A DNA stretch of 42,761 nt from Candidatus Levyibacteriota bacterium (GTDB lineage: Bacteria; Patescibacteriota; Microgenomatia; Levybacterales; UBA12049): contig JACDET010000003.1 of NCBI GenBank assembly GCA_013816255.1, positions 10,303-53,063 of the forward strand, read 5' to 3'. The notes beneath the pieces were generated by a model. It saw nothing but the letters and a program-made list of their open reading frames with translations. It was not told the origin of the DNA and did no database searches. Positions 1,116-41,656 of the stretch are shown here, in pieces; positions within the stretch are counted from its first letter, which is position 1, and each line of letters begins with the position of its first letter. A program made the position numbers and the translations under genes.

Positions 1116-2210
1116 CTAGAACTGTTGCAAGAAATCTAAATCATTTGCATAAAGTACTCGTATATCATCGAGTTTCACTCCTTCTTTCATCATAAGGACC
1201 CGCTCAATTCCCCAGCCAAATGCAAAGCCAGTGTACTTCTCTGGATCTACTCCACCATATTTTAGTACATTCGGATGTACCATTCCTGCTCCTCCAAGTT
1301 CTAGCCAACCTTCTTTGCAAAGTCTGCATCCTTTTCCGAGGCAAACTCCACAACTGATATCGACTTCAAATGATGGTTCGGTGAATTGGAAATGATACGG
1401 GCGGATGCGTGCTTTTCTTTGTTCTCCGAAATATGATTTGACGAAGAAGTCCAACGTGCCTTTGAGGTCCGCGATCGATACATCTTCAGCGACGACCAAT
1501 CCTTCAAATTGATGAAAGGTTGGCGTGTGACTGACGTCTGATTGGCGGCGATAGCATTTGGCGATGTTGAGCATCCTGATATTTACGTCATCCTGAACTT
1601 GTTTCAGGATCTTCTTATTTGTTGGGGATCCCGAAACAAGTTCGGGATGACTATACTTTTCCATTTCTCGCACTTGTCCTGATGATGTATGTGGAGTCAG
1701 GAGAACACTGCCTTTTTTATTATCTGGTTTTTGTTGGATGAAAAATGTCTCCCAATCATCGCGTGCTGGATGATTGTCGGGGAAGTTGAGACTTGTGAAG
1801 GCGTACCAATCCCATTCGATTTCAGGATGACGTACTCTTTTGAATCCGATACTATTAAATATCGTGGTTATCTCGCGGATGGCTTGGGTTACCAGATGGA
1901 GATGTCCGAGTGCTGGTCTGATACCTGGTTCTGTGACGTCGAGTGCTGGGCGAGTAGATACTTTAATTTCTTTGAGTTCCTGCTGCTTGTTCTTGAGTGT
2001 ATCTTCGATGATTGTTTTGACTTCATTGACGACTCTTCCGGCTTCAGGTTTTTGATCTGCTGGAATAGTTTTCATCTCTTTCATAGCTTCAGTCAGTGTT
2101 CCGTTGCGGCCTAGGAATTGGAGGCGGAGTTCTTCAAGTTCTGCCAAGGATTTGGCATCGATAATAAGTGACAGGGCGGTGTTTTTGATTTGTAAAAGTT
2201 TTTCTTTCAT
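1116..2210 (-). CDS. pheS: Phenylalanine--tRNA ligase alpha subunit (start revised to 2210)
   Basis: Motifs GHLH, NFPDNHPARD, HTSSGQ, HTPTFHQFEG, FQFTEPS, GWLELGGAGMVHPNV, GFAFGWGIER; MKEKLLQ starts at 2210 with TATAAT just upstream. Confidence 0.97.
   Translation of the reverse strand: MKEKLLQIKNTALSLIIDAKSLAELEELRLQFLGRNGTLTEAMKEMKTIPADQKPEAGRVVNEVKTIIEDTLKNKQQELKEIKVSTRPALDVTEPGIRPALGHLHLVTQAIREITTIFNSIGFKRVRHPEIEWDWYAFTSLNFPDNHPARDDWETFFIQQKPDNKKGSVLLTPHTSSGQVREMEKYSHPELVSGSPTNKKILKQVQDDVNIRMLNIAKCYRRQSDVSHTPTFHQFEGLVVAEDVSIADLKGTLDFFVKSYFGEQRKARIRPYHFQFTEPSFEVDISCGVCLGKGCRLCKEGWLELGGAGMVHPNVLKYGGVDPEKYTGFAFGWGIERVLMMKEGVKLDDIRVLYANDLDFLQQF
1587..1651. repeat. REP doublet (REPIN) inserted in-frame in pheS
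   Basis: GTCATCCTGAACTTGTTTCAGGATC...GGATCCCGAAACAAGTTCGGGATGAC; same family as intergenic copies at 5411, 5868 and 9961. Confidence 0.9.
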
Positions 2211-2246
2211 AGATTTGTTTATTATAATACTTATTTGTTGTAGCAA

Positions 2247-2419
2247 CAACGCTTCTTTGTACTTTTGGCCGCAAAAGTACCAAAACTCTGTCCGCTCGTG
2301 AAGTCGGGTTACAATTATTCCATTCGCTTGTCGGGGGAAACGTTGCCCTCTCCGGCACAAGGCCGGCGGTCCCCCTGACGACTCATTCCATAATTGCTTC
2401 ACGCCCTTTGTTCAACGCT
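2247..2419. other. GC-rich structured intergenic element (candidate ncRNA or MITE-like repeat)
   Basis: Hairpin GTACTTTTG-GCCG-CAAAAGTAC plus nested stems CGTGAAG/CTTCACG, CAATTAT/ATAATTG, GTCGGGGGA/TCCCCCTGAC, CCGGC/GCCGG. Confidence 0.5.
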
Positions 2420-2449
2420 ACCAAACATATTTATAGAAATATTTTATAT

Positions 2450-3034
2450 TTATTTCTTCACCAACAAAAACGTTGTGAAGTTGTCTTTTTTGTCTTGGAG
2501 ACCGGTTTCTATTACGCTAAGTCCGTATACTTGCGCCAATACTTGGCTTCCCATGACTGCCACGTTCGCAGGGAGTTTCTTTTGGGATAAGTGCTCGGCA
2601 ATCTTTGCGTGATCGATGAATTCTCCTTCACCGACGATTTGTTTAAGATGAGGATATTTCTCAGCAAGTTTTGTTTTGCATTGGGCGAAAACTTGTGGAT
2701 GCGCCATGACTGTATCGATCTTTTCAATCGTTGCGTCAGTTCGGATCATCAGTGCATGTTCGATTTGCATTTTGTAGTCTGCTACCAATTCGAAATTATA
2801 CTTCCCCATTGCACGGACACTTTCATGGACGACGCCACCGAGTGAATTATGAACTGCAAATTGTCCCTTATCGATTGTTCTATCGCTGAGTTCTTTAAGA
2901 ACGTTTTCTGAGGTGTGGAGATATTTGATGTAACAGTTTTGGAGATTATTCGTTTTAACAAACATCAAAACAGCCTCTTCATTGAAGCTTCCGCGACCGC
3001 CTTGGATTCCGATGGTTAGTTTGTTATTTGTCAT
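2450..3034 (-). CDS. pheA: Prephenate dehydratase, catalytic domain only (no ACT domain)
   Basis: IGIQGGRGSFNEEA, AVHNSLGG, AHPQVFAQC, LQDKKDNFTTF (TRF-equivalent) followed at once by the stop; start revised to ATG 3034, outside the REP. Confidence 0.88.
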   Translation of the reverse strand: MTNNKLTIGIQGGRGSFNEEAVLMFVKTNNLQNCYIKYLHTSENVLKELSDRTIDKGQFAVHNSLGGVVHESVRAMGKYNFELVADYKMQIEHALMIRTDATIEKIDTVMAHPQVFAQCKTKLAEKYPHLKQIVGEGEFIDHAKIAEHLSQKKLPANVAVMGSQVLAQVYGLSVIETGLQDKKDNFTTFLLVKK

Positions 3035-3041
3035 ATTGCAC

Positions 3042-3140
3042 GTCATTGCGAGAAGTGAAGCGACGAAGCAATCCTCTACTCCATCTGTAACCTGGTGGAG
3101 ATTGCCACGTCATGCATTATCATGCTTTCCTCGCAATGAC
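3042..3140. repeat. REP doublet (GTCATTGCGAG...CTCGCAATGAC type)
   Basis: Inverted termini with internal AAGCAATC/GATTGCC palindromes; second copy at 4328-4403. Confidence 0.85.
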
Positions 3141-3160
3141 GAAATAGCCTTAGACTCCGC

Positions 3161-4312
3161 CTAGGCAAAATATGTATCAATCTCGTCAATAGTACCACAA
3201 ATACTTACTCTCACAAACCTGTCACCATTTTTTCCAAATGCTGTTCCAGGTGTTACCAATATTTGTTTTTCCTGAAGGAGTTTCATGCTGTATGTCCATG
3301 AATTAGTTTCGGTATTTGGGATCTTGGCCCAGATGTATAAGCTTGCTTTTGGTAATGTGCTTTGTAATCCTAATTTTGATAAATATGTCGCCACTGTTTT
3401 ACGCCGCGCGTCATACGTTCTGATCATATTCTCATGCCATGCAACATCCTTGTGGGTAAGTGCATATGCACCAAGCTTTTGCATTGGGATTGCGAGGCCT
3501 GAATCCATTTGGGATTTTACTTTGGCTAGGGACGCGATGATATCTTTATTTCCGACGATCCAACCGATGCGATATCCGGCAAATGAATATGCTTTTGAGA
3601 AAGAATTTATTTCGACAGCGACTTCTTTGGCACCTTCAATTTGCAATATGCTTGGCGCGACGTATCCGTCAAATGTGATTTCTGAATACGCATTATCATA
3701 AATGATGAAGATATTGTGTTCTTTGGCAAAGGCAATAAGTTGTTCAAGTTCTTCGAGTGTTGCTATTTGTCCAAGGGGATTGGATGGGAAGTTGACCCAC
3801 ATGAATTTTGTTTTGGCGGTTACTTTTGATTTGAGTTCCCTCATATCTATTTTGTACTCATTTGTGGGGAGTAAATCATAGGTGATGACTTTTGCGCCGA
3901 CCATCAGAGCCGGACCTGCGAATCCTTGGTATCCTGGATCAGGTGTCAGGACTTCATCTCCTTTGTTGAGAAACGCCAATGGCAGCATACCAATCGCGTC
4001 TTTTTCTCCAATCAATTGATAGACTTCATCGGATTCTAAATCCACACCAAACCGCTTTTTATGCCATGCAATGAGTGCATCTCTGAATTCGGGTCGTGGA
4101 CCATATCCTGGATAGATATGTGCGTCTGGTTCGGCGATATATTCTTGGAGTTTGGCAATATATTTCTTACTTGGCTTTATATTTGGATTGCCTGTACCGA
4201 GATTCAAGACGTTGCGTCCTGATTGTTTTTCAACCTCCATGACTGCTTTGTTGAGTTTTGAGAAAATATATTCAGGAAAGTTTTCTAATCGTTTGGCTGG
4301 TGTGATATTCAT
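3161..4312 (-). CDS. PLP-dependent aminotransferase class I/II (likely aromatic transaminase in this context)
   Basis: LNLGTGNP, PDPGY, NFPSNPLG, YDNAY, SFSKAYSFAGYRIG (PLP lysine), PGTAFG, FVRVS; start revised to ATG 4312. Substrate inferred from gene context only. Confidence 0.9.
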   Translation of the reverse strand: MNITPAKRLENFPEYIFSKLNKAVMEVEKQSGRNVLNLGTGNPNIKPSKKYIAKLQEYIAEPDAHIYPGYGPRPEFRDALIAWHKKRFGVDLESDEVYQLIGEKDAIGMLPLAFLNKGDEVLTPDPGYQGFAGPALMVGAKVITYDLLPTNEYKIDMRELKSKVTAKTKFMWVNFPSNPLGQIATLEELEQLIAFAKEHNIFIIYDNAYSEITFDGYVAPSILQIEGAKEVAVEINSFSKAYSFAGYRIGWIVGNKDIIASLAKVKSQMDSGLAIPMQKLGAYALTHKDVAWHENMIRTYDARRKTVATYLSKLGLQSTLPKASLYIWAKIPNTETNSWTYSMKLLQEKQILVTPGTAFGKNGDRFVRVSICGTIDEIDTYFA

Positions 4313-4327
4313 AAGTATATTTATATT

Positions 4328-4403
4328 GTCATTGCGAGGAACGAAGTGAAGAAGCAATCCCTATTAGTAGAGATTGCCGCGTCGTTTCACTCCTCGCAAT
4401 GAC
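4328..4403. repeat. REP doublet (GTCATTGCGAG type)
   Basis: GTCATTGCGAGGA...AAGCAATC...GAGATTGCC...TCCTCGCAATGAC. Confidence 0.85.
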
Positions 4404-4408
4404 AATTA

Positions 4409-4690
4409 TTATTTGTTACTCCTTTCTTCAAGTATTAGAGCGTGCTTATGAATTTTTTCATAAATCTCCCGTACCAAATCCTGAGACAGGTCTAGATCGT
4501 TTCCTTTTGCCAACTTATCTTCTAATACTTCCTGCCACCGCTTAGGATCAAGCGGCAGAATATCACGTTCTTTTTTATATAATCCGACTTTTTTGACAAC
4601 CTCCATCCGCTCTGCTAGTGCTTCAAGCAGTTTTTTATCAGCAACATCTATCTCGTGACGCATTTGTTCTAAAATATATTTTTTATCCAT
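4409..4690 (-). CDS. Chorismate mutase type II (AroQ), monofunctional
   Basis: LEQMRHEIDVADKKLLEALAERMEVVKKVGLYK...DPKR, 93 aa. Confidence 0.92.
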   Translation of the reverse strand: MDKKYILEQMRHEIDVADKKLLEALAERMEVVKKVGLYKKERDILPLDPKRWQEVLEDKLAKGNDLDLSQDLVREIYEKIHKHALILEERSNK

Positions 4691-4780
4691 TATTTTGTAT
4701 TTACTAATTATTTTAACACGCTTTAGTTCATTGCCGGAGCAAATGTATGATTTACCCCGGCAATACTTATTTGTTTCATA

Positions 4781-5197
4781 CTAACTACGGAACGATATTA
4801 CTCCGCTTTTGCTTCTAACAGCTGAGGGTTGATTCATTACAGTTGGTTTTCGGTATTTGCTTGTAAGGGCTGTTGCATCAACTAATATTGTCACATCTTC
4901 GACTAATTCTGTCTCACCAATGCCGTTATTATCTAAATGCACCTCCACAGTCTCACCATGTAAGTGACGAGCACGAACTTTTATATGAGATTCTTTTTCT
5001 CCTGGTAGTACATTACTTGTATCCATTCCTACTCCAGTTGGCATTAGAGGAGAATTATAAAAGGTTCTTCTCCATTGTGGAATATCTGCAATACGATTTT
5101 CCCAAACAACTTCTCCTCCACCTCGTGCTTTGTATTGTACTGTTACACTATCTTTTGGACGGAATTGTCCTATTGAGTCTGTTTTACGTTCTGTCAT
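4781..5197 (-). CDS. Hypothetical protein (138 aa), first gene after the aromatic attenuator
   Basis: ATG 5197 preceded by strong SD AAGGAGGTGA; no recognisable motif. Confidence 0.65.
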   Translation of the reverse strand: MTERKTDSIGQFRPKDSVTVQYKARGGGEVVWENRIADIPQWRRTFYNSPLMPTGVGMDTSNVLPGEKESHIKVRARHLHGETVEVHLDNNGIGETELVEDVTILVDATALTSKYRKPTVMNQPSAVRSKSGVISFRS

Positions 5198-5220
5198 AAT
5201 AATCACCTCCTTACATTGGA

Positions 5221-5253
5221 CCTCACCCTGACCCTCTCCTGCGAGGAGAGGGA
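5221..5253. repeat. REP-like hairpin (CCTCACCCTGACCCTCTCC...GGAGAGGG type)
   Basis: Stem CCCTCTCCT-GCG-AGGAGAGGG preceded by CCTCACCCT. Confidence 0.6.
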
Positions 5254-5269
5254 ACATTGTTTAGACCAT

Positions 5270-5294
5270 AAAAAAACCTCCCTTCTGGGGAGGT
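5270..5294 (-). terminator. Attenuator terminator of the aromatic operon
   Basis: Minus strand ACCTCCC-CAGAA-GGGAGGT followed by a T-tract. Confidence 0.9.
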
Positions 5295-5323
5295 GTATGA
5301 GTGTTCCTGGTTTGTGTTTTCGT

Positions 5324-5401
5324 TTAGGCGAAAGCACCACTCAACCTCCCGGTTGGGGAAGTAAAGTAAAACCAAAAATAAGCTATGTTTTGCATTGTCA
5401 T
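5324..5401 (-). CDS. Aromatic amino acid leader peptide MTMQNIAYFWFYFTSPTGRLSGAFA
   Basis: 25-aa ORF with six consecutive aromatic codons; GGGAGGTTGAGTG in the leader can pair with CACTCATACACCTCCC, overlapping the terminator 5' arm. Confidence 0.9.
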   Translation of the reverse strand: MTMQNIAYFWFYFTSPTGRLSGAFA

Positions 5402-5410
5402 ATTATTAAT

Positions 5411-5491
5411 GTCATTCCGAACTTGTTTCGGAATTCCCAATTAGTATGGGATCCTGAAACGAGTTCTCCCCATTCGGGGACTTAGGATGAC
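5411..5491. repeat. REP doublet with an extra nested hairpin
   Basis: GTCATTCCGAACTTGTTTCGGAAT...GATCCTGAAACGAGTT, then a TCCCCATTCGGGGA hairpin, then AGGATGAC. Confidence 0.85.
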
Positions 5492-5502
5492 AAGGAAAAG
5501 GT

Positions 5503-5853
5503 TTATGCAGTTCTTACTGCGTCTACTACTTTTTTAAATGCTTGTGGATCTTCAACGATGAGGTTACTCAACATTTTTCGATCCAATGCGATGTTTGCTT
5601 TTTGGAGCTTATTGATGAAAACACTGTAGGAGATGTTTTCTTTTTTGACAGCTTCTGAGATGCGGACAATCCACAATGTGCGGAAATCTTGCTTTCTCAG
5701 CTTTCGGCCGTGGAATGCGTATGCACCTGCGTGCAGACTTGCTTCTTTAGCGACTTTGACCAATTTACTTTTTGTTCCACGATAGCCCTTTGTCAGAGAC
5801 AAAAGTTTATTGTGTTTTCTTCGTGATACGACTCCTCTTTTAATTCTTGACAT
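5503..5853 (-). CDS. rplT: 50S ribosomal protein L20
   Basis: MSRIKRG...KGYRG...FRTLWIVRI...LDRKMLS. Confidence 0.98.
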   Translation of the reverse strand: MSRIKRGVVSRRKHNKLLSLTKGYRGTKSKLVKVAKEASLHAGAYAFHGRKLRKQDFRTLWIVRISEAVKKENISYSVFINKLQKANIALDRKMLSNLIVEDPQAFKKVVDAVRTA

Positions 5854-5867
5854 AATAGTTCTTTCTT

Positions 5868-5930
5868 GTCATTCCGAATTTATTTCGGAATCCCCATTTA
5901 TTGGAGATCCTGAAACGAGTTCAGGATGAC
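5868..5930. repeat. REP doublet
   Basis: GTCATTCCGAATTTATTTCGGAATC...GATCCTGAAACGAGTTCAGGATGAC. Confidence 0.9.
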
Positions 5931-6155: not shown

Positions 6156-6223
6156 GTCATTCTGAACCCGTTTATCGGGTAAAGAATCTCATACCTGGGA
6201 TCCTTCGCTTTGCTCAGGATGAC
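6156..6223. repeat. REP doublet overlapping the infC stop codon
   Basis: GTCATTCTGAAC...AAGAATCT...GGATCCTTCGCTTTGCTCAGGATGAC; infC ends V-S-S-TGA inside it. Confidence 0.85.
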
Positions 6224-14646: not shown

Positions 14647-14781
14647 GAGATTCTGGACAAGCCAGAATGACGATTATCTATATTGTCATCCTGAGCGTAG
14701 TCGAAGGATCTCATGCAGCTAATTATATGTAAAACTGTTGAGAGAAATCCTTCGACTTCACTTCGTTCCGCTCAGGATGAC
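14647..14781. repeat. Cluster of three REP units
   Basis: GAGATTCTGGACAAGCCAGAATGAC; GTCATCCTGAGCGTAGTCGAAGGATCT; ATCCTTCGAC...GCTCAGGATGAC. Confidence 0.85.
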
Positions 14782-14788
14782 AAGAAAA

Positions 14789-15982
14789 TTATTTTACTGA
14801 CAAGAGGAATTTTTTAAGGATTTGGTAATAGTCTGCAAGGCTTTGGATATCTACCCATTCGTCATCCTGATGCTGATTTCCACCAATCGGTCCAAATTCG
14901 ATTCCATCACAGCCAGTACCAGCAAACCGCATCAGATCAGAAGTTCCATGCCCCATTACTAAAGGAAGATCCTTTTGTAATACCGGCTGGCTTATACTTT
15001 TTAGTAATTGAATATACTTATTATCTGCAGCTGTTTTTAATGGTGGCCAGCTAACAATAATCTCTAAAGCTATATCCTTGGGAAGAAGGGATTTGATCCT
15101 ATCAATAATATCTGTATCAGCTACTGTATATCTAATGTCTAACCCTGCTTCGCAATGGTCGGGTATTCTATTTGTTGCATTATTTGTCGAATGAATTTTT
15201 GTTACACTAACAGTTGTATTATGAGATTCTTCTTGAGGAGATGGATACTTCTCATGGATTTTGTGAAGTACTCTATATAGTTTTGAAATCGCGTTATCAC
15301 CATTCCAGGGATAAGCCCCATGAGAAGCTTTCCCTTCAGCAAGTAACCGTAAAAAGTAGCCACCTTTTGCTTCATTTTTTATATGAAAATTGCTACCACA
15401 CTCACCCGAGAGAATAAACTCACCACGTACACCCTGATCCACTTGATACTTTGCTCCATTAATTCCAGATTGCTCCTCATCAGATGTTATCTGTAATGCA
15501 ATTGGATAATGAATATCTTTATTTAATTCTTTTAAAAGTGTCATCATTACTGCTACTGCTGCTTTCATATCGTATGCGCCCTTGCCGTAAAGTCTGCCAT
15601 TTTTTTCATATGGGACGTATTGCTCATCTTTACCAGGCACAACATCAAGATGTCCATTCAATAGGATTTTGAAGTGTTTTGTTCCAGGTTTATTGTTATG
15701 AACTAAAAGGCTTTTGATAGCGTTACTTTCATAAACATCTACCGTAAGATCTTTCATATAGTTACTTGCTAAAGCAACTATGGATTCTCTCTCTTCATGA
15801 TTTTCTGCAGTCGACCGAAAAGAAATAAGTTTTGATGCAAGACTTATGATTTCTGTAATTGGAGTCTTCGTTAGTATTGCAGTCCCAATAGAATCTGTAG
15901 TCCAATCATGTGTTTGAGTACTATAATTTTCATTATAAGATGATAAAGTATCTATTATATTTGTGTCATCTAATTTTTTCAT
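14789..15982 (-). CDS. M20 family metallopeptidase/deacylase (ArgE/DapE-like)
   Basis: NGHLDVVP, LYGKGAYDMK, SDEE, GE, GKASHGAYPW, NRIPD, GTSD, FGP, HQDDE. Confidence 0.93.
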   Translation of the reverse strand: MKKLDDTNIIDTLSSYNENYSTQTHDWTTDSIGTAILTKTPITEIISLASKLISFRSTAENHEERESIVALASNYMKDLTVDVYESNAIKSLLVHNNKPGTKHFKILLNGHLDVVPGKDEQYVPYEKNGRLYGKGAYDMKAAVAVMMTLLKELNKDIHYPIALQITSDEEQSGINGAKYQVDQGVRGEFILSGECGSNFHIKNEAKGGYFLRLLAEGKASHGAYPWNGDNAISKLYRVLHKIHEKYPSPQEESHNTTVSVTKIHSTNNATNRIPDHCEAGLDIRYTVADTDIIDRIKSLLPKDIALEIIVSWPPLKTAADNKYIQLLKSISQPVLQKDLPLVMGHGTSDLMRFAGTGCDGIEFGPIGGNQHQDDEWVDIQSLADYYQILKKFLLSVK

Positions 15983-15990
15983 ATAAAAAT

Positions 15991-16015
15991 AAAAACCCCG
16001 CCTCTTTGAGCGGGT
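15991..16015 (-). terminator. Attenuator terminator upstream of the M20 gene
   Basis: Minus strand ACCCGC-TCAAAGAG-GCGGG then GTTTTT; alternative pairing GCGG..ACTTTA/TAAAGT..CCGC. Confidence 0.85.
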
Positions 16016-16042
16016 ACTTTAGGCATTAAAGTCTCACCGCGC

Positions 16043-16090
16043 TTACGGGTTAACCAGCATAATGTGGATGAAAAAGCATATTTTAGCCAT
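16043..16090 (-). CDS. Leader peptide MAKICFFIHIMLVNP
   Basis: 15-aa ORF starting 6 nt after TTGACT-18-TATAAT and ending at the antiterminator/terminator. Confidence 0.75.
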   Translation of the reverse strand: MAKICFFIHIMLVNP

Positions 16091-16096
16091 GATTTA

Positions 16097-16126
16097 ATTA
16101 TACTCTCCCTCTTTAAAGTAAGTCAA
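16097..16126 (-). promoter_or_regulatory. Sigma70 promoter of the M20 leader
   Basis: TTGACT-18-TATAAT. Confidence 0.75.
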
Positions 16127-16142
16127 GGATACCCACTTAGCT

Positions 16143-17744
16143 CTATGCAGCCTTTTTCAGTCTATCAAAAACTACTTGTAATTCCTGTCTTCTTGCATTG
16201 CTATCGCCTGTCATGATTACACCTACTATTGCGGATTCATCAGGTATATAGGGTTTTGGCGGTCTGGTGCGCAAAATGACTAAGCCATCTCCTCGCACAT
16301 CCTGAGCATATGTTTCTCCGATTGCTTCCGCAAAATCGGCTACCTTTACCCCTTTTGGCAGGTTATAATTATCTTCAGCCAGGATGCCATGTTCTATAAT
16401 TTCTCTCATACTTGCAACAGTTTGTGGCAAATTACCAACCAAGAGAACTTCATCAGTTGCTTCAATAAAGTTTGTTCGCCGGGGGTTACTTTCTGCTAAA
16501 AAGTACTCTGAAGGTTTTTCTAGTTGCCCATAATGTATCAGTTTGTTCTGTAGCGATGAGCTGAGTGTACGAGCCTTCATGGCACTGACTATTCTTTTTT
16601 GGACCTCCTGCTCTTCATCGCCCGGAAACATAGCATCAAAATTTATCCACCCTCGCAGCGTATTTATATCAATACCTTTTTCGCGTGCGATAGTATGCAC
16701 AAAATCTTTACCGCCATGAGTAATTCTTTCCTCAAATTCTTTCCGTTTATTTCGTAACTTTGGATCAGTAGGCTCATATGTACTCGTACCTATGCATGCT
16801 TTTGTCTGTGCATCTAATATCTGCGCATTAAATCCAAGCGGTAGGACTTCTCCATCCATAAAGTGCATTGATAATCCTGGAACTTCTTTGAGGTTTAAGG
16901 CTCGCGAAAGAACAATTGTTGCATCAGCATTGTCCGCGCTTTCTTTGATCATAAATGCTTGTGCATCGTGTAATGCATCTTCCCACGTAGTATATGGTGG
17001 TCTCTTTTTTTTATCATCAGTTTCAAGTCGTATCTCTCCATTTTTTTGTTGAATATTAAAACTTCCATATCCTCCATCGGAATAGTTTAACCTACCAAAA
17101 ACTCCCCGTATATAGTCAGGCATACCAATTGCCGTATACAGTTCTTCTTCAAAATTGAGGAGTTCTATCCCAGCTCTTGTGACCTCAGTTACAGGAACTA
17201 CCTCATGATGTGGTACCGCAAAATCTGGGTTCTGGGCTGCTTTTACACGTTCGTGAAATGTTGCTTTATTTTTGAGTTCGTGGACAATAGCAGTATGCAT
17301 TCCGCTGATACTCACTCCAGGTATATCCAAACCATTTCTTTGCCGGTACTCTGAAAAGTTCCCATTATTTAAATATGGAGCAATGAGCGCGGTATTTCCT
17401 TGTTTCAGTTCTGCTTGAAGTGTCTTTGGAGTATAGAGGGTGAATCGGTTACTGTTTCCTGAGAGTTCTCCGATGTATCGTGCTTGCGCTGTTACATTGG
17501 CTTGACCGAGTTGTAATAAACGACTTGCTGCTTCATCATGTACGTGTGGTACTTCATCAAGAAGAATTCCTTCAACCCTTCCACCAACCGGAATATGCCC
17601 AAATCGAGTATTGTATCTCCCGGCAATTTCATATTCTGTATCTTGATCTAACGCGACCAAATCGGTTATATTGTGCCGCGCAATACCGAGGTCAAACGTT
17701 TGATTGGGCGGTGCATAGGTAAATTGTCTTTCAAGATTTGGCAT
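16143..17744 (-). CDS. Divergent ATP-grasp ligase-like protein (resembles PGM1/preATP-grasp type)
   Basis: LKNKATFHE, GRLNYSDGGYGSF glycine loop, GWINFDAM, LAESNPR (ExNxR). Subfamily is inference. Confidence 0.65.
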   Translation of the reverse strand: MPNLERQFTYAPPNQTFDLGIARHNITDLVALDQDTEYEIAGRYNTRFGHIPVGGRVEGILLDEVPHVHDEAASRLLQLGQANVTAQARYIGELSGNSNRFTLYTPKTLQAELKQGNTALIAPYLNNGNFSEYRQRNGLDIPGVSISGMHTAIVHELKNKATFHERVKAAQNPDFAVPHHEVVPVTEVTRAGIELLNFEEELYTAIGMPDYIRGVFGRLNYSDGGYGSFNIQQKNGEIRLETDDKKKRPPYTTWEDALHDAQAFMIKESADNADATIVLSRALNLKEVPGLSMHFMDGEVLPLGFNAQILDAQTKACIGTSTYEPTDPKLRNKRKEFEERITHGGKDFVHTIAREKGIDINTLRGWINFDAMFPGDEEQEVQKRIVSAMKARTLSSSLQNKLIHYGQLEKPSEYFLAESNPRRTNFIEATDEVLLVGNLPQTVASMREIIEHGILAEDNYNLPKGVKVADFAEAIGETYAQDVRGDGLVILRTRPPKPYIPDESAIVGVIMTGDSNARRQELQVVFDRLKKAA

Positions 17745-24631: not shown

Positions 24632-24713
24632 TGCGGGCGAGAGGACTCGAACCTCCACACCTTTTGGGCACAAGTTCCTAAAACTTGCGTGTCTACCATT
24701 TCACCACGCCCGC
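24632..24713 (-). tRNA. tRNA-Leu(TAG)
   Basis: GCGGGCGTGGTGAAATGGTAGACACG; arm CAAGT-TTTAGGA-ACTTG; long variable arm; GGTTCGAGTCC. Confidence 0.96.
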
Positions 24714-24832
24714 ATTTTGTTGTGAATAATCAGTATTATACCTAACTTGGGAGGGAAAGTGAAAGGGTGGGATTGAATATCCTCCTTCGTGTAAAGCTAT
24801 TGAGGATTATGGCATTAATATATTAAAGCCAT

Positions 24833-24914
24833 AAAAAAATCCTCTCGTAGGTGTTTTGGGCACATACCAGAGGATCTGTTAAGGAGTATAACTTATAACT
24901 ATGGGCTTTGTCAA
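24833..24914 (-). ncRNA. Candidate small RNA or orphan leader: promoter followed by a ~45-nt terminated hairpin
   Basis: TTGACA-18-TATACT, then ATCCTCT...AGAGGAT and a T-tract; no ORF. Confidence 0.4.
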
Positions 24915-24925
24915 GGGGTAAATTT

Positions 24926-25501
24926 TTATTGTAATTGTGTCATGAAATGGTTGACGCTAAAGGCCCAACTGCCATTACTTCCTGGTGTGTACATCGTCAT
25001 TATTTGTTCAGGTGTCACAAGGCCTCTTGGTTTGTATCTTGTCGCGAGTCCTTTGGTTACTGTATAAATCCCCTCTTTATAATCTTTAAATCTTGTCACT
25101 TTGCCACCGTAAATTCCATAGCCCCAGCAGTTATATGAATTATGGGGAATTTTACGACAGAGGTTTGATTCTTGCATTGCTATTGCCGGAATCAGACGAT
25201 AGTCCAAACCGAACTCATCCGCCGCATCGACTATATCTCCAGCATTGGCTTCCAACGGAGAATTGTATTTGGCAAGGAACTGGCGTACACGTTCTTTCCG
25301 GCCGTCTTCTTGGGTTATATCCCCGGCCATAGTATTTTGTGATGTTGGTAGCGCTGCGTATGAAACAGTGTTGGTTCCGAGGACACCTTTGGTTGATGAT
25401 GTTTCACTATGTTGATAGAGAGCCAAAATAGTTATGAGAGAAAACACCAAAGCAAATGGGGCAATAAAGAAGAGCGCAGTACTGAATAGAATCTTCTTCA
25501 T
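24926..25501 (-). CDS. Membrane-anchored lysozyme-like/glucosaminidase-fold protein
   Basis: N-terminal TM; LDYRLIPAIAMQES, SYNCWGYG, YTP...W. Confidence 0.75.
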   Translation of the reverse strand: MKKILFSTALFFIAPFALVFSLITILALYQHSETSSTKGVLGTNTVSYAALPTSQNTMAGDITQEDGRKERVRQFLAKYNSPLEANAGDIVDAADEFGLDYRLIPAIAMQESNLCRKIPHNSYNCWGYGIYGGKVTRFKDYKEGIYTVTKGLATRYKPRGLVTPEQIMTMYTPGSNGSWAFSVNHFMTQLQ

Positions 25502-25589
25502 GGGTATTTCTTATGATCACATACAATGCTAGAGATTGTCAAGGGAGCGAGGTTCTGATAAAATCAATATGCTTCGCAGGATGCTAGCA

Positions 25590-25672
25590 GCCCAAGTGGT
25601 GAAATGGTATACACGCTGGCTTCAGGTGCCAGTGCTCGCAAGGGCGTGGAGGTTCAACTCCTCTCTTGGGCA
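25590..25672 (+). tRNA. tRNA-Leu(CAG)
   Basis: GCCCAAG/CTTGGGC acceptor; arm CTGGC-TTCAGGT-GCCAG; long variable arm. Confidence 0.96.
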
Positions 25673-25752
25673 CTGACATGCGTTTACCGTAACTCGTTAC
25701 ACGTCGTTAAGAAGCACTTCATCAGTGCGAGCACAGAGATGAATAAAAAAAT

Positions 25753-25835
25753 GCGGATGTGGTGAAATGGTATACACGCTACCTTGAGGTGGTAGTGCCA
25801 GAAATGGTGTGGAGGTTCAACTCCTCTCATCCGCA
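25753..25835 (+). tRNA. tRNA-Leu(GAG), integration site
   Basis: GCGGATG/CATCCGC acceptor; arm CTACC-TTGAGGT-GGTAG; 3' end overlapped by the recombinase ORF. Confidence 0.96.
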
Positions 25836-27355
25836 CTAGAGGGGAGATCCTGCTCGGTTAAGTAGCGAATAGATTGATATATCGGGCTAATCCTATGGTT
25901 CAATGTGCCATTATTGTCCCAAGCCAATCCTTCGGGGAACATTGAACCTATAAGTACTTTAGCCTGAGTTAGGGTTGCTCTTTTATACGCCTCCCCTAAG
26001 TCTGCAAGCATAGTTTTCATAAAAGCAGTAACCTCATCTATATTATATTTATCAAAGGTAGCGTCATCTTTGGCTATTTGCGCTTTTGTCATTTCACTCT
26101 CAATTAATGCATTTTGTTCCTTGAAGATTTCATCGGAATAGATTCCAGCTAAATTTTTCTGAACCAATAACTTTCTCGTAGCTTGAAGTTTGGCAATTTC
26201 ATCATCAGCACTGTTTTTAATATTTTGTAACCTCCCATGTCTTTCATAATATGCTTTATAGACAAACGTAATAAAGAGATTCAAACATTCTTTTTTCGGA
26301 GTAGTTTCTTTCAATACCTGCATAAGGGCATTTTCAAGCACAAGTGGCTTAATTGCTCTCCCCTTGCATGATCCACTACATCGATAGTAGGCATATTTAC
26401 CACCATGTCCTTTACTCCATCCTCCAGTTAAGCCCTTTCCGCAGAGAGCACATTTAATAATTCTTCTTAACGGTAAGGTTGGGTTGTCATGATTTCTGTG
26501 TGCCAATGCAACCTGATTCACATTTCTTCCGTCAAGTATTGCCTGTACTTTATAAAATTGTTGCTCAGTAATCATAGGAACGAAATTGCCTTTTACCTGC
26601 TCCTTGTAGGTTTTTGATGCGAGTATTCCCATATAGAACTTATTTCTAAAGAGTTTATTAACTCTTTGCGTACATAAAACATATTCTTTATCCCCCTGCT
26701 TCGCTCTAAGGCCGCTATCATTCATAAGATCCCTCATTTCCTTGAGAGATTTTGTTCCTGTTGCCATTAAATCCCACGCGGCTTTCATCTTATCCCATGT
26801 TTGAGGATTTTTAACTGCATATCCAGCTTCTACTTTGTAGCCAAGTGGTGCTTGCCCTGTAACAATCATGCCTGCCATAAATCTAGCTTTTAAACCATTT
26901 TTTGCTCTTTCACTGCGTATATCGTTATCAAGTTGAGCAAAACCCGCAAGTATTGTTTCAACTAATTTTTCTGTAGGTGAGTCTCCTGTTGGCTCTGTTG
27001 AGGAGATAATGTTCACGCCGTTTTCCCCGAGTTTCTTACGGATTGCTAAATAATCAGCAGTTATTCTTGAAATTCTATCCAATCGGTAGACAAATACTGC
27101 CTGAAATTTGTTTTTATTTTTTCTGGAGTATTCAAGGAGACTGATAAGCACAGGTCTTCCTATAATATTTTTAGCTGATCGCCCTTCTTCTCTAAAAACT
27201 TCAATAATTTCATAACCTCTTTTTTCAGCTTCTTTCCGACAGATTTCTTCTTGAGTATTTAAAGAAAAGTTATCAACTTGTTCTTCAGTTGATACACGAA
27301 GATAGAGAACTGCTTTTTTTCCATCCGCATACGTTGTAGGTGCTTGTAATTTCAT
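25817..27355 (-). CDS. Large serine recombinase (integrase)
   Basis: YLRVSTEEQ catalytic Ser, VYRLDRISR, APLGY, recombinase domain, Zn ribbon CALC...YYRCSGSC, coiled coil; stop lies inside the tRNA T-loop. Confidence 0.95.
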   Translation of the reverse strand: MKLQAPTTYADGKKAVLYLRVSTEEQVDNFSLNTQEEICRKEAEKRGYEIIEVFREEGRSAKNIIGRPVLISLLEYSRKNKNKFQAVFVYRLDRISRITADYLAIRKKLGENGVNIISSTEPTGDSPTEKLVETILAGFAQLDNDIRSERAKNGLKARFMAGMIVTGQAPLGYKVEAGYAVKNPQTWDKMKAAWDLMATGTKSLKEMRDLMNDSGLRAKQGDKEYVLCTQRVNKLFRNKFYMGILASKTYKEQVKGNFVPMITEQQFYKVQAILDGRNVNQVALAHRNHDNPTLPLRRIIKCALCGKGLTGGWSKGHGGKYAYYRCSGSCKGRAIKPLVLENALMQVLKETTPKKECLNLFITFVYKAYYERHGRLQNIKNSADDEIAKLQATRKLLVQKNLAGIYSDEIFKEQNALIESEMTKAQIAKDDATFDKYNIDEVTAFMKTMLADLGEAYKRATLTQAKVLIGSMFPEGLAWDNNGTLNHRISPIYQSIRYLTEQDLPSSADERS

Positions 27356-27747
27356 GTACTGCCTTTCTCGTGTAACAATTCCTGTAATGTTGATCCATCA
27401 AAGATTGTTTTTTCATAATCATCCAGCCAACTACATGCTAAAAATTGGATAGCACTTGTCATATCCCTTATTTGTTCATCGGTAAAGTTATTTGCCAAAC
27501 CTCCTAGTATTTCCTTTGTTTTCTTAAGATTTTTTTCATCATGTTTTTGTTCTGGGAATAAATCGTCAAGAGATTTCTTAAGAGATTGAGAATTATTTTT
27601 TAGGTTGATTTGTTGATCCTCTGGATTTGGTGTAGCTGCTTCTAATACTTCTGTTATTGGGGCGATGATTTTCTCCTCAAAAACTCTATTTGACATATTT
27701 GGAGGCTGGGATGTAAATGAAGAATTTTTAAATAAAGAAGTTTGCAT
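27352..27747 (-). CDS. Hypothetical protein translationally coupled to the recombinase
   Basis: ATGA 4-nt overlap with the recombinase start; C-terminal WLDDYEKTIFDGSTLQELL. Confidence 0.75.
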   Translation of the reverse strand: MQTSLFKNSSFTSQPPNMSNRVFEEKIIAPITEVLEAATPNPEDQQINLKNNSQSLKKSLDDLFPEQKHDEKNLKKTKEILGGLANNFTDEQIRDMTSAIQFLACSWLDDYEKTIFDGSTLQELLHEKGST

Positions 27748-28014
27748 ACACTATCGTTATATAGATAGTATATATCTAAATATAGATAGTTGTCAAGGTA
27801 TCGCTATTGTAATTAGCTACATTTATAGCCTCAAATGCTTTGTAGCACCACCTCTTTTAGAAACCTCTTCGGTTTCTCTGGTCAAGGATAAATGCACGAT
27901 GGTCGCGGCCATCGTCCTTGACCATTCACTTCCCGCTAGGACTGCTGTCATGTACGTCGGGCGCGGGCACGCGCCCAACAACAAACAATTATGAAAACGA
28001 AAGGGGGTGAAGTT

Positions 28015-28440
28015 ATGACAATACAAGAACGAGAAGACGCATTAGGAAAATTTGTAGAACGAGAGATATATGTCTGCCAGTCTGCGTTAGTTGAAGAGGC
28101 ATTAAAAAAGCAGATTTTCTCAATAGATGATCTTGAGAATAAGTATCGGCCGTTTGATGGAAGGTTAATAACTCCGAATGTTTGCGTTCGGTGTCAAGGT
28201 GAATTCATTTGTCTTGACAGTGAGACCGGAGAATGTGAGTCTTGCTTTGAGGATCACCAAGAACCACAGGATATTTATGAATGGTGGTTAGTTTCTCCGT
28301 GGTTTAGTAAAAGATTACTAATGGAAGGTGAGCCGATTTTGGATAACGATTATGGTATATGGTGGGGGCGTTGTACCACAGGACAGGCTACAAGCATGGA
28401 TTACGTCATACAGAAAATCTATGACGATATTATGCAGTAA
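28015..28440 (+). CDS. Hypothetical protein with CxxC...CxxC zinc finger
   Basis: SD AAGGGGGTGA before ATG 28015; CVRC...CESC; Trp-rich EWWLVSPW and WWGRCTTGQA. Confidence 0.75.
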   Translation: MTIQEREDALGKFVEREIYVCQSALVEEALKKQIFSIDDLENKYRPFDGRLITPNVCVRCQGEFICLDSETGECESCFEDHQEPQDIYEWWLVSPWFSKRLLMEGEPILDNDYGIWWGRCTTGQATSMDYVIQKIYDDIMQ

Positions 28441-28452
28441 TGGAGAGTGGAA

Positions 28453-28483
28453 ATAGTGGGGCATAGCTTACATGCCCCACTAT
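28453..28483. terminator. Perfect hairpin between convergent genes
   Basis: ATAGTGGGGCAT-7-ATGCCCCACTAT (12-bp stem). Confidence 0.7.
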
Positions 28484-29262
28484 CCCAAAGATGCTACAGC
28501 GGTAGTTATATTTACAAATCCTCTCTTTTGTACCTCTTCAGCGGTTGAAAGGTAAAACTTTATGTCGGCTTGTTCTTCGTTGAGTATTTTGGCAATGTAA
28601 TAAGTAAGCATTCGTTTAACTTTTTCATCAGGACAAATAAGAAGCATTGACGGGAAAGGCTTATCAGTGCTTTCTTCCCACTCACTACTCTGACAATAAG
28701 CAAAATACTGGCGTACAATGCCTTTTGCGATGTATAGACGAGGTGTCGGATCAATAATGGTTGTGAAACAACGCTTGATGCCCTGTGGCCGTTTAATGGC
28801 GATATAGGCGTCCAGTATGTCTTGAGGAAAGTAGTCATAGTCCGTTAGGGTATTTTTTGTTTCAAAAGTGATTGTCTCGTCGTGTTTCTTTTGTGATAGT
28901 AGCGTGAGATAGACATCTGCGATAAGGAGGCAATGGTCAATAAAGGTTTGTGATCTGTGCTTTTCTCGATATATTTTGTTTAAAATTGCAAGAGAATAGC
29001 TATTGGTAGATTTTAAGAGTTTACGGGCTTTTTTGGTTAATGTATATACGGCTGGTTTTTTGATAATTGTTTGTTTATCATAGTATCTCTGGAGGTATTC
29101 TTTTTCTGTTAGCTCTGTTAGCCAGGTATTGATACGGGTGTGGTTTTTGTGGTTGAGTAGTTTTTGGAATTGATGAGTATGAAGGAAACGGAATTTATAT
29201 AATAGGAAAAGGATAGTGTTTTGCGTATTAGTTATGTCTTTTTTTTGCATACTATTATTCAA
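28480..29262 (-). CDS. Replication-relaxation (Replic_Relax-like) protein, putative relaxase
   Basis: N-terminal wHTH (ILFLLYKFRFL..Q...YTLT), IDHCLLIADVY, PD-(D/E)xK-like LDAY, FPSMLLIC; position near the coupling protein. Confidence 0.75.
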   Translation of the reverse strand: MNNSMQKKDITNTQNTILFLLYKFRFLHTHQFQKLLNHKNHTRINTWLTELTEKEYLQRYYDKQTIIKKPAVYTLTKKARKLLKSTNSYSLAILNKIYREKHRSQTFIDHCLLIADVYLTLLSQKKHDETITFETKNTLTDYDYFPQDILDAYIAIKRPQGIKRCFTTIIDPTPRLYIAKGIVRQYFAYCQSSEWEESTDKPFPSMLLICPDEKVKRMLTYYIAKILNEEQADIKFYLSTAEEVQKRGFVNITTAVASLG

Positions 29263-29432
29263 TATTCCTTTATAGGGATAGCATGTCAGACTTTCTTATA
29301 AAATAGCTTCAATTTAAAGCTAATTTTGCATACAACGTCTTATACATTTTTATAATGTCCGAACATTATATCACTTGACTCACCCTATATAACCTTATAT
29401 AATCTTATATATATCTTGTATAAGGTGCGTAT

Positions 29433-30488
29433 ATGAAAAAATTTGAAGCTAGATTAGACAATGTATCACATGAAGTTTGGGCAAAAATAACGCAAATTGA
29501 AGAATTAAAAGGCAGATGGAGTGCTGGCACTAACCTCAGCCCTCAAACTTTGGGACGGTTAAAACGTTCTGTTTTGATTACTTCAACAGGGGCATCTACG
29601 CGTATTGAAGGTTCTAAACTCTCTGATGAAGATATCGAGAAGATGCTTCGAGGTATATCTATCCAAAAATTTACCAATCGAGACAAGCAAGAAGTACAAG
29701 GATACTACGAATTGCTTCAGAATGTTTTTGAGAGCTGGGAAGAACAACGACTTGGAGAGGGGTTGATCAAGCATTTTCATAAAGAACTGCTGAAATATGT
29801 TGAAAAAGATATACTTCACAGGGGCGATTATAAAAAACAGGAGAACAAAGTAGAAATGATTGATGCTGAGGGGAAATCTATTGGGACACTTTTTGCTACC
29901 ACTCTTGCATACCTTACGCCAAAAGAAATGACAGAGCTTGTTGAGTGGACAAAACAAGCAATAGATGAAAAAAAGTACCATCCTCTCCTTATTGTTGGTA
30001 ATTTCATTGTTGAGTTTCTCAATATCCATCCGTTTCAAGATGGAAATGGGAGACTATCTAGAGTCCTCACAAATTTATTGTTATTACAACAAGGTTATTT
30101 ATACATGCCCTATGTGTCTCACGAAAAACTTATTGAAGATAACAAACCAGACTATTATTTAGCTTTGAGAAAGAGTCAAAAAACATTCAAAACTGCTAAA
30201 GAAGATGTCAACCCTTGGCTAAATTTCTTCTTAACCATCTTCTTAAAGCAATCACAGATGGCTATTGGTTTAATTACAGCAGAAAATATAGAAACACTAC
30301 TCTCCCCGAAGCAATTAGCCGTATGGGAATATTTACAAACTGTCGAGGAAGCAAGTCCCCAGGATATATCTGATAAAGCAGCTGTTGCTCGTCCTACAGT
30401 GAATCAAGTATTGAACAAACTTTTAGATTTGAAAAAGGTCGAACGAATTGGTGAAGGCTCAGCAATTCGCTATAGAAAGACCACGTAA
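29433..30488 (+). CDS. Fic family protein with N-terminal inhibitory motif and C-terminal HTH
   Basis: HPFQDGNGRLSR; STRIEG inhibitory-type motif; C-terminal wHTH. Confidence 0.95.
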   Translation: MKKFEARLDNVSHEVWAKITQIEELKGRWSAGTNLSPQTLGRLKRSVLITSTGASTRIEGSKLSDEDIEKMLRGISIQKFTNRDKQEVQGYYELLQNVFESWEEQRLGEGLIKHFHKELLKYVEKDILHRGDYKKQENKVEMIDAEGKSIGTLFATTLAYLTPKEMTELVEWTKQAIDEKKYHPLLIVGNFIVEFLNIHPFQDGNGRLSRVLTNLLLLQQGYLYMPYVSHEKLIEDNKPDYYLALRKSQKTFKTAKEDVNPWLNFFLTIFLKQSQMAIGLITAENIETLLSPKQLAVWEYLQTVEEASPQDISDKAAVARPTVNQVLNKLLDLKKVERIGEGSAIRYRKTT

Positions 30489-30531
30489 TTAGAGGAACCT
30501 TTGCATGTGTGTTCAGCTTTTATTCTTTTGA

Positions 30532-33078: not shown

Positions 33079-33136
33079 AAAACTATATTTTTGTACAGAA
33101 GCTTCGCACTTAAATTTGCAGGTACATTAATTGCTA

Positions 33137-34894: not shown

Positions 34895-35049
34895 TGTTTA
34901 TTATTATATACAACCGTTTAAAAAAAGCATACCGTATTATAAAGAAACAGCTACTTCGTAGTTGATCGCTACGCGGAGCTAGGACTTGTGTGACTTCAAT
35001 GATTCAGTGGAGCTTGTAAACTAGCACCGTAGGCTAGTAGAATAAAGGC

Positions 35050-35842: not shown

Positions 35843-36027
35843 ACTTATTTTGTGGAGTCGTCATTCGGCGGTGTCTTAGGCCAATTTTTGTAGAGTTTAC
35901 AAAGTTTACAGCATTTATTCCTGTGCCTATCTCAGCTCCCGTATCAAATCTTTTCATAGTAACTTGGGATCATAGCAGAAAAGTACTTAAACTAAACATT
36001 AAATATCAAAAGCTATCAAAGTGCATC

Positions 36028-36106
36028 TTGACAAAGATAACCCAGGCATAATACAATCAGCAAACTCAACTGCTCATTATTGCAAATGCAATACATGGGC
36101 TTTTTT
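36028..36106 (+). promoter_or_regulatory. Promoter and leader terminator of the conjugation operon
   Basis: TTGACA-18-TACAAT; hairpin GCTCAT-TATTGCA/TGCAATA-ATGGGC plus T6, ending 5 nt before ATG 36112. Confidence 0.65.
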
Positions 36107-36111
36107 GTTAT

Positions 36112-36369: not shown

Positions 36370-36399
36370 ACCCACTGCCTATGAATAGAGTAAGTATCA

Positions 36400-37917: not shown

Positions 37918-37923
37918 TACATT

Positions 37924-40904: not shown

Positions 40905-40919
40905 AATGGTAAAGCACAT

Positions 40920-41654: not shown

Positions 41655-41656
41655 CT

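Follow-up and report, generated by a model that had tools for sequence, protein, structure and literature searches.

What does a short reading frame spelling Tyr-Phe-Trp-Phe-Tyr-Phe do directly behind the ribosomal protein gene rplT of a bacterium from the candidate phyla radiation (CPR)? The question is raised by a stretch of 42,761 nt (hereafter the window) from Candidatus Levyibacteriota bacterium, contig JACDET010000003.1, in which such a frame precedes an orphan gene, chorismate mutase (CM), an aminotransferase, prephenate dehydratase (PDT) and pheS. A preliminary description of this locus had proposed an attenuator at the pheM position, with leader, antiterminator and terminator after rplT, and both the sequence elements and the conserved pairings of such a device were found. 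We conclude that the element is most probably a classical ribosome-mediated (leader-peptide) transcription attenuator, a reading to which we assign a probability of close to 80%. Most descriptions of leader-peptide attenuation concern Proteobacteria and Actinobacteria, and a literature search, judged by titles and the starts of abstracts, found no description of such attenuators in CPR bacteria.

The leader frame, which starts with MTMQNIAYFWFYF, comprises 25 codons on the minus strand downstream of rplT. Its codons 8 to 13 form the aromatic run, i.e. codons for Phe, Tyr and Trp are all present. Region 1 begins directly after the last aromatic codon and is able to pair with region 2, which can alternatively pair with region 3 to form an antiterminator. 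Regions 3 and 4 are the arms of an intrinsic terminator with a 7-pair stem (5 G-C), a 5-nt loop and seven U residues (5276-5270). The Phe-Trp-Phe codons (UUUUGGUUU) double as the 5′ half of an outer stem, whose 3′ half is AAACCAGGA. Folding of the 151-nt leader gave a minimum free energy (MFE) of −41.8 kcal/mol, compared with −28.7 ± 3.6 for shuffled sequences (z −3.65; 1 of 200 shuffles was as good), and the MFE structure combined the 1:2 hairpin, the outer stem and the terminator. When the nascent RNA was folded up to region 3 without a mask, outer stem and 1:2 hairpin formed (−28.2 kcal/mol) and region 3 was free. When the aromatic codons were masked as by a ribosome, the MFE structure was the 2:3 helix extended by GAGUG:CACUC (−24.1, −24.7 kcal/mol). 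In the masked full-length RNA, terminator (−28.0 kcal/mol) and antiterminator (−26.6 kcal/mol) are nearly equal in energy and thus the order of synthesis would decide between them, as in classical attenuators. A terminator scan on its own did not exceed chance level (6 sites in 9 kb versus 9.2 ± 3.2 in shuffles) and the case for the element is therefore built on conservation.

DNA downstream of rplT was taken from 29 relatives, which together with the genome of the window (G000; other G numbers denote related genomes and L numbers their loci) gave 30 loci. An aromatic leader plus terminator followed rplT at 21 of them, G000 included, and all 12 other genomes of the genus had the leader after rplT with the same frame and hairpins. 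Two genomes, G001 and G012, share the entire layout of G000, from rplT through leader, orphan gene, CM, aminotransferase and PDT to pheS. A 29-nt core, which starts at a GCU, includes the six codons and extends into region 1, has the same sequence in these three genomes, and its flanks have diverged. An exact-pattern scan of GTDB genomes returned 16 matches, 15 of which were such leaders and one a chance match inside a coding gene. A covariance model, built from 9 of 30 leaders with a structure set by hand, matched, at E ≤ 0.001, 95 of the order's 151 genomes (by family, 63 of 99, 29 of 49 and 2 of 2 in three of them), some of these matches being paralogous elements with other codon runs. Inspection of further top loci (25, as 5 of the 30 returned repeated already examined genomes) placed the leader behind rplT in 20, behind other genes in four and at a contig start in one.

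The alternative pairings are maintained along with the sequence. In the first set of leaders compared, consisting of 30 distinct sequences, all 30 keep complementarity between regions 1 and 2 (−7.5 to −16.3 kcal/mol), 2 and 3 (−9.1 to −16.8 kcal/mol) and 3 and 4 (−8.5 to −17.5 kcal/mol). Where the arms vary, they change together: GGGGGG/CCCCC in G016, GGGG/CCCCG in G015, L054 and L060, GGAGGGG/CCUCC in L051 and L052, and GGAGGU/ACCUCC in G040. On a plain MAFFT alignment of 28 leaders, misaligned loops left RNAalifold with no more than 5 pairs, and this approach was replaced by these per-sequence duplex energies and by a model-based alignment of 53 matches from 53 loci (52 distinct rows). As this alignment was fitted to its own model, its pair counts lean toward our reading in the terminator state, with 90.6% of 1168 cells paired (slid controls 41-67%), and in the antiterminator 2:3, with 88.7% of 363 cells paired (slid controls 43-62%). 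In the terminator state, 15 of 23 pairs had changed on both sides, a number reached by none of 500 shuffles. By helix, paired cells of the model alignment amounted to 80-94% in outer-stem helices 1-3, to 91% and 97.6% in helices 4 and 5 of the 1:2 hairpin, and to 95.6% in terminator helix 6, where 4 of 7 pairs had changed on both sides.

Conservation extends to the encoded residues. An ATG-started frame with at least four aromatic residues in seven is present in 51 of the 52 distinct matches (at least five in 49), a count that is partly circular because the sequences were found with a model containing the codon run; the remaining match is cut by a contig end. Phe occurs in 51 of these frames, Tyr in 50 and Trp in 38, Trp being missing from 13 of 51, and the conservation of UGG need not mean Trp sensing because this codon also belongs to an RNA stem. 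That all three aromatic amino acids are sensed, as proposed beforehand, may be the case, but in the C. glutamicum precedent described below Tyr supply was without effect. In the variants YYWFYF, YFYFYF, WFYFYF and FYFFYF the nucleotides change and the aromatic identity is kept, with substitutions staying among Phe, Tyr and Trp. Matches with lower model scores in relatives combine the same hairpins with codon runs for other residues, namely Ile, Leu plus Val, or Asn plus Leu. The same scaffold combined with other codon runs provides independent support for codon reading, as such a switch predicts.

Might the hairpins instead act through a protein, a tRNA in a T-box-like manner or a metabolite, with the frame left untranslated? 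The leader ATG lacks a Shine-Dalgarno (SD) sequence and the Phe-Trp-Phe codons contribute to a stem conserved in the RNA, which would suit this alternative. Changes in the run stay aromatic, however, and an in-frame ATG and stop are kept. Paralogous scaffold elements carry Ile or Leu and Val runs, as codon reading would predict. Moreover, no T-box or riboswitch family matched the window at gathering level or positions 2150-5560 at E ≤ 10. We consider an untranslated frame very improbable.

The scaffold (region 2 GGGAGG, CCUCCC/GGGAGG-U terminator) recurs two to five times per genome, mostly ahead of hypothetical genes. The runs found on it include IIIAII, TTIISIII, LILSVVVLLL, FVLNIMVVLL and NNNLLL (loci L099-L113; example positions are L109:1551-1665, L106:1491-1598, L110:1560-1688, L102:2205-2343 and L101:1465-1582). 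Apparently, a single scaffold serves the order for amino-acid sensing in general. Terminators of this type were also sought in G000 by regular expression, which returned four sites, and the aromatic leader was present only at the site in the window. On contig C38 of this genome, outside the window (about 3400-3535, plus strand), a leader MFNGTQLVCCCAPLT with three Cys codons is followed by a CCUCCC/GGGGAGG-U terminator. A TGGTATCTT box is located 7 nt ahead of its ATG and an open reading frame (ORF) of 249 aa with an AHHDDE motif lies downstream. This element may be a Cys-sensing attenuator with a leaderless leader.

The thrS-to-pheT genes surrounding the aromatic leader are all on the minus strand (Table 1). 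As stated in the preliminary description, the leader heads a hypothetical gene, CM, an aminotransferase and PDT; Pfam names were obtained for the three enzymes and none for the 138-aa ORF. Judged by family (CM_2, PDT, Aminotran_1_2), all members of the chorismate-to-Phe branch are present and intact, with the aminotransferase presumed to convert phenylpyruvate to Phe.

Table 1. Features of the leader and of the surrounding genes (window coordinates). The genes thrS and pheT were named by likeness to genes of relatives, not by Pfam.
Feature	Position	Strand	Basis
thrS	8530-6806	-	likeness to relatives' genes
infC	6822-6214	-	Pfam IF3
rpmI	6136-5933	-	Pfam L35
rplT (L20), last gene of thrS-infC-rpmI-rplT	5853-5503	-	Pfam Ribosomal_L20, E 8.6e-39
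Repetitive extragenic palindromic (REP)-like element between rplT and leader	5491-5411	.	regular-expression census
Leader peptide frame, 25 codons + stop, MTMQNIAYFWFYFTSPTGRLSGAFA	5401-5324	-	ORF translation
Aromatic codons UAU UUU UGG UUU UAC UUU (Y F W F Y F), codons 8-13	5380-5363	-	frame
Region 1, ACUUCCC, pairs with region 2	5362-5356	-	
Region 2, GGGAGGU, pairs with region 1 or region 3 (antiterminator)	5350-5344	-	
AAACCAGGA, 3′ half of outer stem, partner of F-W-F codons	5313-5305	-	fold
Region 3, ACCUCCC, terminator 5′ arm	5294-5288	-	
Region 4, GGGAGGU, terminator 3′ arm	5282-5276	-	
Intrinsic terminator: region 3, loop CAGAA, region 4, 7 U	5294-5270	-	terminator scan
Orphan 138-aa gene	5197-4781	-	no Pfam family
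Chorismate mutase (CM), type II	4690-4409	-	Pfam CM_2, E 9e-21
Aminotransferase class I/II	4312-3161	-	Pfam Aminotran_1_2, E 4.6e-62
Prephenate dehydratase (PDT), catalytic domain only	3034-2450	-	Pfam PDT, E 1.2e-36
TATAAT box, candidate pheS promoter	2226-2221	-	10 nt ahead of pheS ATG
pheS	2210-1116	-	Pfam tRNA-synt_2d
pheT, 5′ part, runs off window	1027-2	-	likeness to relatives' genes

Between rplT and the leader, a promoter scan detected no sigma-70-like site; the interval is occupied by a palindrome (5411-5491), in agreement with the earlier statement that a REP element replaces a clear promoter. As no promoter of the leader itself is evident, RNA polymerase most likely enters from the upstream genes thrS-infC-rpmI-rplT. 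Such an entry by read-through of the ribosomal operon, also proposed beforehand, is plausible, the leader ATG lying 2-54 nt after rplT in the relatives; in G000 it lies 101 nt past the rplT stop, with an 81-nt repeat inserted. The proposal does not hold in the sense of one simple rplT-to-pheT unit, since pheS has a −10 box of its own. The pheS ATG lacks an SD sequence and is preceded by TATAAT 10 nt upstream. An extended −10 (TGnTAnnnT) or TATAAT box at 7-12 nt from a pheS ATG without SD sequence was present in 23 of 30 distinct upstream regions, compared with about one in shuffles and one in a control window. A separate, nearly leaderless mRNA of pheST is therefore probable, and given the conserved −10 box the attenuator probably gates mainly the four cassette genes.

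This bears on the alternative that the element is the equivalent of pheM and that its real target is pheS-pheT, the four intervening genes being passengers of operon decay. The position directly after rplT is that of E. coli pheM, as far as described in the portion of PMC5371410 consulted here. The distances to pheS can be short: the leader is only 70 nt ahead of pheS in G117, a small ORF alone lies between the two in 6 of 25 loci, and the gap between PDT and pheS measures just 53 nt in G001. In addition, a scan found no terminator-like site between PDT and pheS in the window and thus read-through into pheS is possible. The −10 box at 23 of 30 pheS genes suggests instead an independent, nearly leaderless pheST mRNA; it is present in G000 and even in G117, where the leader stands directly ahead of pheS. 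Moreover, the first genes past the leader are biosynthetic in most relatives. We regard pheS-pheT as an unlikely main target and prefer an attenuator of the biosynthetic genes.

What the leader heads in the relatives is in line with this preference. In 10 of the 12 genus relatives the first gene past it resembles a PfkB-type kinase or 3-deoxy-D-arabino-heptulosonate-7-phosphate (DAHP) synthase. Six relatives were read further and five of them have a long aromatic operon, which fills the space between leader and pheS in four and runs to the contig end in G002. In G010 it comprises a PfkB-type kinase, DAHP synthase, 3-dehydroquinate (DHQ) synthase, 5-enolpyruvylshikimate-3-phosphate (EPSP) synthase, shikimate kinase, shikimate dehydrogenase, type I dehydroquinase, chorismate synthase, CM, an aminotransferase and finally a 437-aa fusion of prephenate dehydrogenase (PDH) and PDT (PDH_N::PDT). 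Pfam names cover the genes of this operon except CM, as well as CM and the fusion of G003. The G003 operon lacks the PfkB gene and the aminotransferase; at the leader-pheS site of G013, PfkB, DAHP synthase and aminotransferase are missing; in G002 the contig ends within the aminotransferase; and in G016 two small extra ORFs precede pheS. In the sixth relative, G017, nothing more than two small ORFs and the aminotransferase precedes pheS. In the 25 further loci, where genes were named by resemblance to the Pfam-annotated G010 proteins with no Pfam run of their own, the leader is followed by a PfkB-like or DAHP-synthase-like gene in 10, by a small ORF and then pheS in six, directly by pheS in one (G117) and by other hypothetical ORFs in eight. 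Among relatives with the full operon (L044-L049), the dehydrogenase-dehydratase fusion (PDH_N + PDT) measures 437-439 aa, and a PfkB-family kinase is the first operon gene in many.

We conclude that the leader element is ancestral to the order and that it normally heads a complete shikimate-to-Phe/Tyr operon. The view that a Phe-biosynthesis cassette was inserted between rplT and pheS is not supported, since in five of the relatives read further the same leader heads a whole operon of shikimate genes, CM, in part an aminotransferase, and PDH-PDT that ends at pheS, and G000 retains a trimmed remnant of it. No match to chorismate synthase or DHQ synthase (PF01264, PF01761), PDH_N, TrpA or chorismate-binding enzymes was found in G000, whose completeness by markers is 80%, whereas each of these searches was positive in 11-14 of 14 control genomes. 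A tblastn search of G000 with DAHP synthase, AroB, AroA, AroK, AroE, AroD, AroC and the PDH half of G010 likewise returned nothing. From the G010 operon proteins only the aminotransferase (64% identity), the PDT half (residues 245-437, 54%) and pheS had matches, all of them in the window, and the CM of G003 matched that of G000 at 46%. The idea of self-made chorismate was not supported, as none of the seven shikimate enzymes was found. AroC, AroA and DAHP synthase were also not found in G001 and in the single 1.6-Mb contig of G012; AroC is present in the operons of G003, G010 and G002. The cassette would thus have to be fed with chorismate, prephenate or phenylpyruvate from outside.

Is the trimmed cassette, then, still in use? 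Attenuator and cassette might both be decaying relics, with enzymes idle for want of chorismate and the switch kept only as a terminator of the rplT operon. The shikimate genes not found in G000, G001 and G012, the PDH, TrpA and chorismate-binding enzyme not found in G000, and the repeats that have invaded most gene junctions there all fit such decay. Yet the four genes are intact, with no internal stops, in all three genomes, between which 30-50% of residues differ. Ratios of nonsynonymous to synonymous substitution rates (dN/dS) among the three were 0.23 for CM, 0.05-0.12 for the aminotransferase, 0.10-0.12 for PDT, 0.17-0.40 for the orphan gene and 0.03-0.08 for pheS, although dS was saturated in several comparisons. 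Furthermore, the codon and region-1 core has stayed identical despite diverged flanks, and a plain terminator needs no conserved aromatic frame. A pair of relics therefore appears distinctly improbable, more so than control of pheS-pheT alone, and we regard the cassette as a living remnant of the ancestral operon under purifying selection.

How the trimmed form arose can be approached by phylogeny, which had been recommended for the enzymes. In the PDT tree, G000, G001 and G012 group together with 100/100 support and are separate from eight PDTs of the fusion type; the tree of the aminotransferase (7 rows) was not decisive. pheT unites the three trimmed genomes at 88/92 and the pheS tree needs two changes. 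The C-terminal 230 residues of thrS place the three in three different well-supported clades, G000 grouping with the full-operon genome G002 at 100/100. Identity of the G000 thrS product is 84% to G002 versus 55-64% to the others, and trigger factor is 82% identical to both G001 and G002. These conflicting trees and identities indicate that thrS or the cassette recombined between species, and the history of the trimmed cassette may be either a single vertical loss or a recombinational spread.

On this basis we propose the following course of events, in which leader translation, the response to stalling, the origin of the transcript and the feeding of the cassette are modelled on the sequence elements, conservation, complementarity and gene content described above. 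RNA polymerase would arrive from thrS-infC-rpmI-rplT and transcribe the 25-codon leader. With plentiful charged tRNA-Phe, tRNA-Tyr and perhaps tRNA-Trp, the ribosome would pass the six aromatic codons, allowing region 1 to pair with region 2 in a hairpin braced by the outer stem between the Phe-Trp-Phe codons and AAACCAGGA. Region 3 would be free to form the terminator with region 4 and the U-tract, and transcription would stop, which would also close the ribosomal-protein operon. A ribosome stalled on the aromatic codons would mask region 1, so that region 2 could capture region 3 once it is made and no terminator would form. Read-through would then reach the orphan gene, CM, the aminotransferase, PDT and possibly pheST, which has its own −10 box.

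Several points weigh against this reading, and the leaning of the pair counts, the circularity of the frame count, the ambiguity of UGG and the saturation of dS given above are among them. The covariation of the antiterminator is weak, with double changes at 3 of 7 pairs, a number reached by 85 of 500 shuffles. The leader is, as mentioned, without an SD sequence. A search of sequencing runs found no RNA run carrying the locus, its sole match being a DNA run from which the window itself may derive. Besides the conserved −10 box of pheS, internal cassette promoters are possible, and repeats in G000 now part all genes of the cassette except the orphan gene and CM.

The first gene behind the switch has a strong SD sequence, AAGGAGGTGAT, and no Pfam family. 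Relatives of it occur in 2 of 60 related genomes, namely G001 and G012, and the protein family has four members in 5.8 billion proteins, itself included. Six aligned homologues share 45 invariant columns. An AlphaFold2 model (predicted local distance difference test score 66) shows eight strands and a short helix, i.e. a predicted beta fold. Matches in the ESM Atlas did not exceed 0.84 by features or a TM score of 0.47 by structure, and Foldseek against the PDB gave nothing at E ≤ 0.001. Secretin-like sheets were considered and rejected because the best VIA-align Z of 5.3 is below the tool's stated noise level. Its place directly behind the switch, where it replaces lost genes, provides the sole functional clue.

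The repeats deserve a separate description. Palindromes of the type GTCATYS...SRATGAC number 77 in the genome, compared with about five expected from motif counts, and six lie within the thrS-to-pheS operon. These figures come from a regular-expression census, as an inverted-repeat search (at least 16 nt) gave four pairs and missed imperfect palindromes. The 77 members are imperfect palindromes of 50-110 nt that fill most intergenic gaps of the thrS-to-pheS cluster; in the window they occur at 3042-3140, 4328-4403, 5411-5491, 5868-5930, 6156-6223 and 14685-14781. The syntenic gaps of G001 and G012 that were read contain no such palindromes. A repeat of the GTCATCC...GGATGAC type at 1587-1651 inside pheS adds 21 residues in frame and is missing from four relatives. 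Between terminator and orphan gene (5232-5252), a hairpin CCCTCTCC...GGAGAGGG is followed by GGGTGAGGTCC; a near-identical copy of the CCCTCTCC...GGAGAGGG element ahead of pheS in G012 (L004) marks another small repeat family.

Farther away in the window, positions 25817-42761 encode a large serine recombinase (25817-27355), a Fic protein, TrwB/TraG-like and TraG P-loop ATPases and a TrbL/VirB6-like protein; tRNA genes at 24632-25835 adjoin the recombinase region. This part looks like an integrated conjugative element. At 14789-17744 on the minus strand, an M20 peptidase gene has an upstream 533-aa ORF without Pfam family; the covariance model detected no aromatic leader there.

What could the trimmed operon mean for its bearers? 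We tentatively suggest, as a possibility with clearly less than even odds, that a Levybacteria-like CPR sub-lineage has shed the shikimate pathway and the tyrosine branch, keeps the attenuated chorismate-to-Phe branch and relies on a host or neighbour for chorismate, prephenate or phenylpyruvate. The orphan protein might be part of this scavenging, e.g. in the capture or processing of an imported intermediate, and the trimmed cassette may move between species through recombination across the rplT and pheS flanks. If this is true, the locus would represent a metabolic hand-off in mid-pathway that is switched on by uncharged aromatic tRNAs. The trimmed operon is a testable case of the shedding of biosynthesis, in which the early pathway is gone and the last three steps are under selection together with their sensor, and it predicts a specific imported metabolite. 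Attenuation would be a conserved device in a CPR order whose genomes are tiny and whose regulators are few, and one that a simple RNA model can find. For annotation, two cautions follow: Rfam misses such leaders, which score 30-44 bits against a threshold of 55, and the presence of CM and PDT does not equal Phe prototrophy.

Among known systems, the Phe leader of pheL/pheA resembles the element in structure. Rfam model RF01859 (Phe_leader) aligns over its full length to 5396-5268 with 32.6 bits (E 0.0082 in 3.4 kb, 0.0005 in 211 nt), below the gathering score of 55. In 10 of 19 relatives' loci it was the only family at E ≤ 1, always at the leader, with 30.3-43.7 bits; none reached 55. Both have an outer stem on the Phe codons, an inner CCCC/GGGAGG hairpin and a CCUCCC/GGGAGG-U terminator, and in both cases CM and PDT functions are controlled. 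In contrast, the model consensus reads as seven Phe codons without a Trp codon, and pheL/pheA belongs to another lineage, whereas the leader described here follows a ribosomal operon. To judge from its sequence, the element works like a Phe leader, yet it fails the curated threshold of the family.

In position, it corresponds to E. coli pheM, which according to the sections consulted of two reports lies between rplT and pheS and attenuates pheST (PMC5371410; PMC11802643). Compared by these descriptions, both follow rplT in thrS-infC-rpmI-rplT and share a short aromatic-rich frame, alternative hairpins, an intrinsic terminator and pheS-pheT downstream. They differ in that four genes, and up to eleven in the relatives, separate the leader from pheS here, that pheS has its own −10 box, that the run mixes Phe, Tyr and Trp codons and that no promoter of the leader's own was found. 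A third counterpart is the aroR leader of C. glutamicum (Phe-Tyr-Phe), which attenuates the aroF (DAHP synthase) operon and, as summarized in the excerpt available of PMC11802643, citing Neshat et al. 2014, responds to Phe and not to Tyr supply. Like the leaders of most relatives, it is a mixed aromatic leader on a shikimate-pathway operon; unlike it, the leader of G000 has no shikimate gene left behind it, and phylum and operon neighbourhood are different. Specific to G000 and its trimmed relatives is that the chorismate-to-Phe branch has been kept with no chorismate source of their own found. The mechanism as such is textbook and closest to those of E. coli pheM and pheL and of C. glutamicum aroR.

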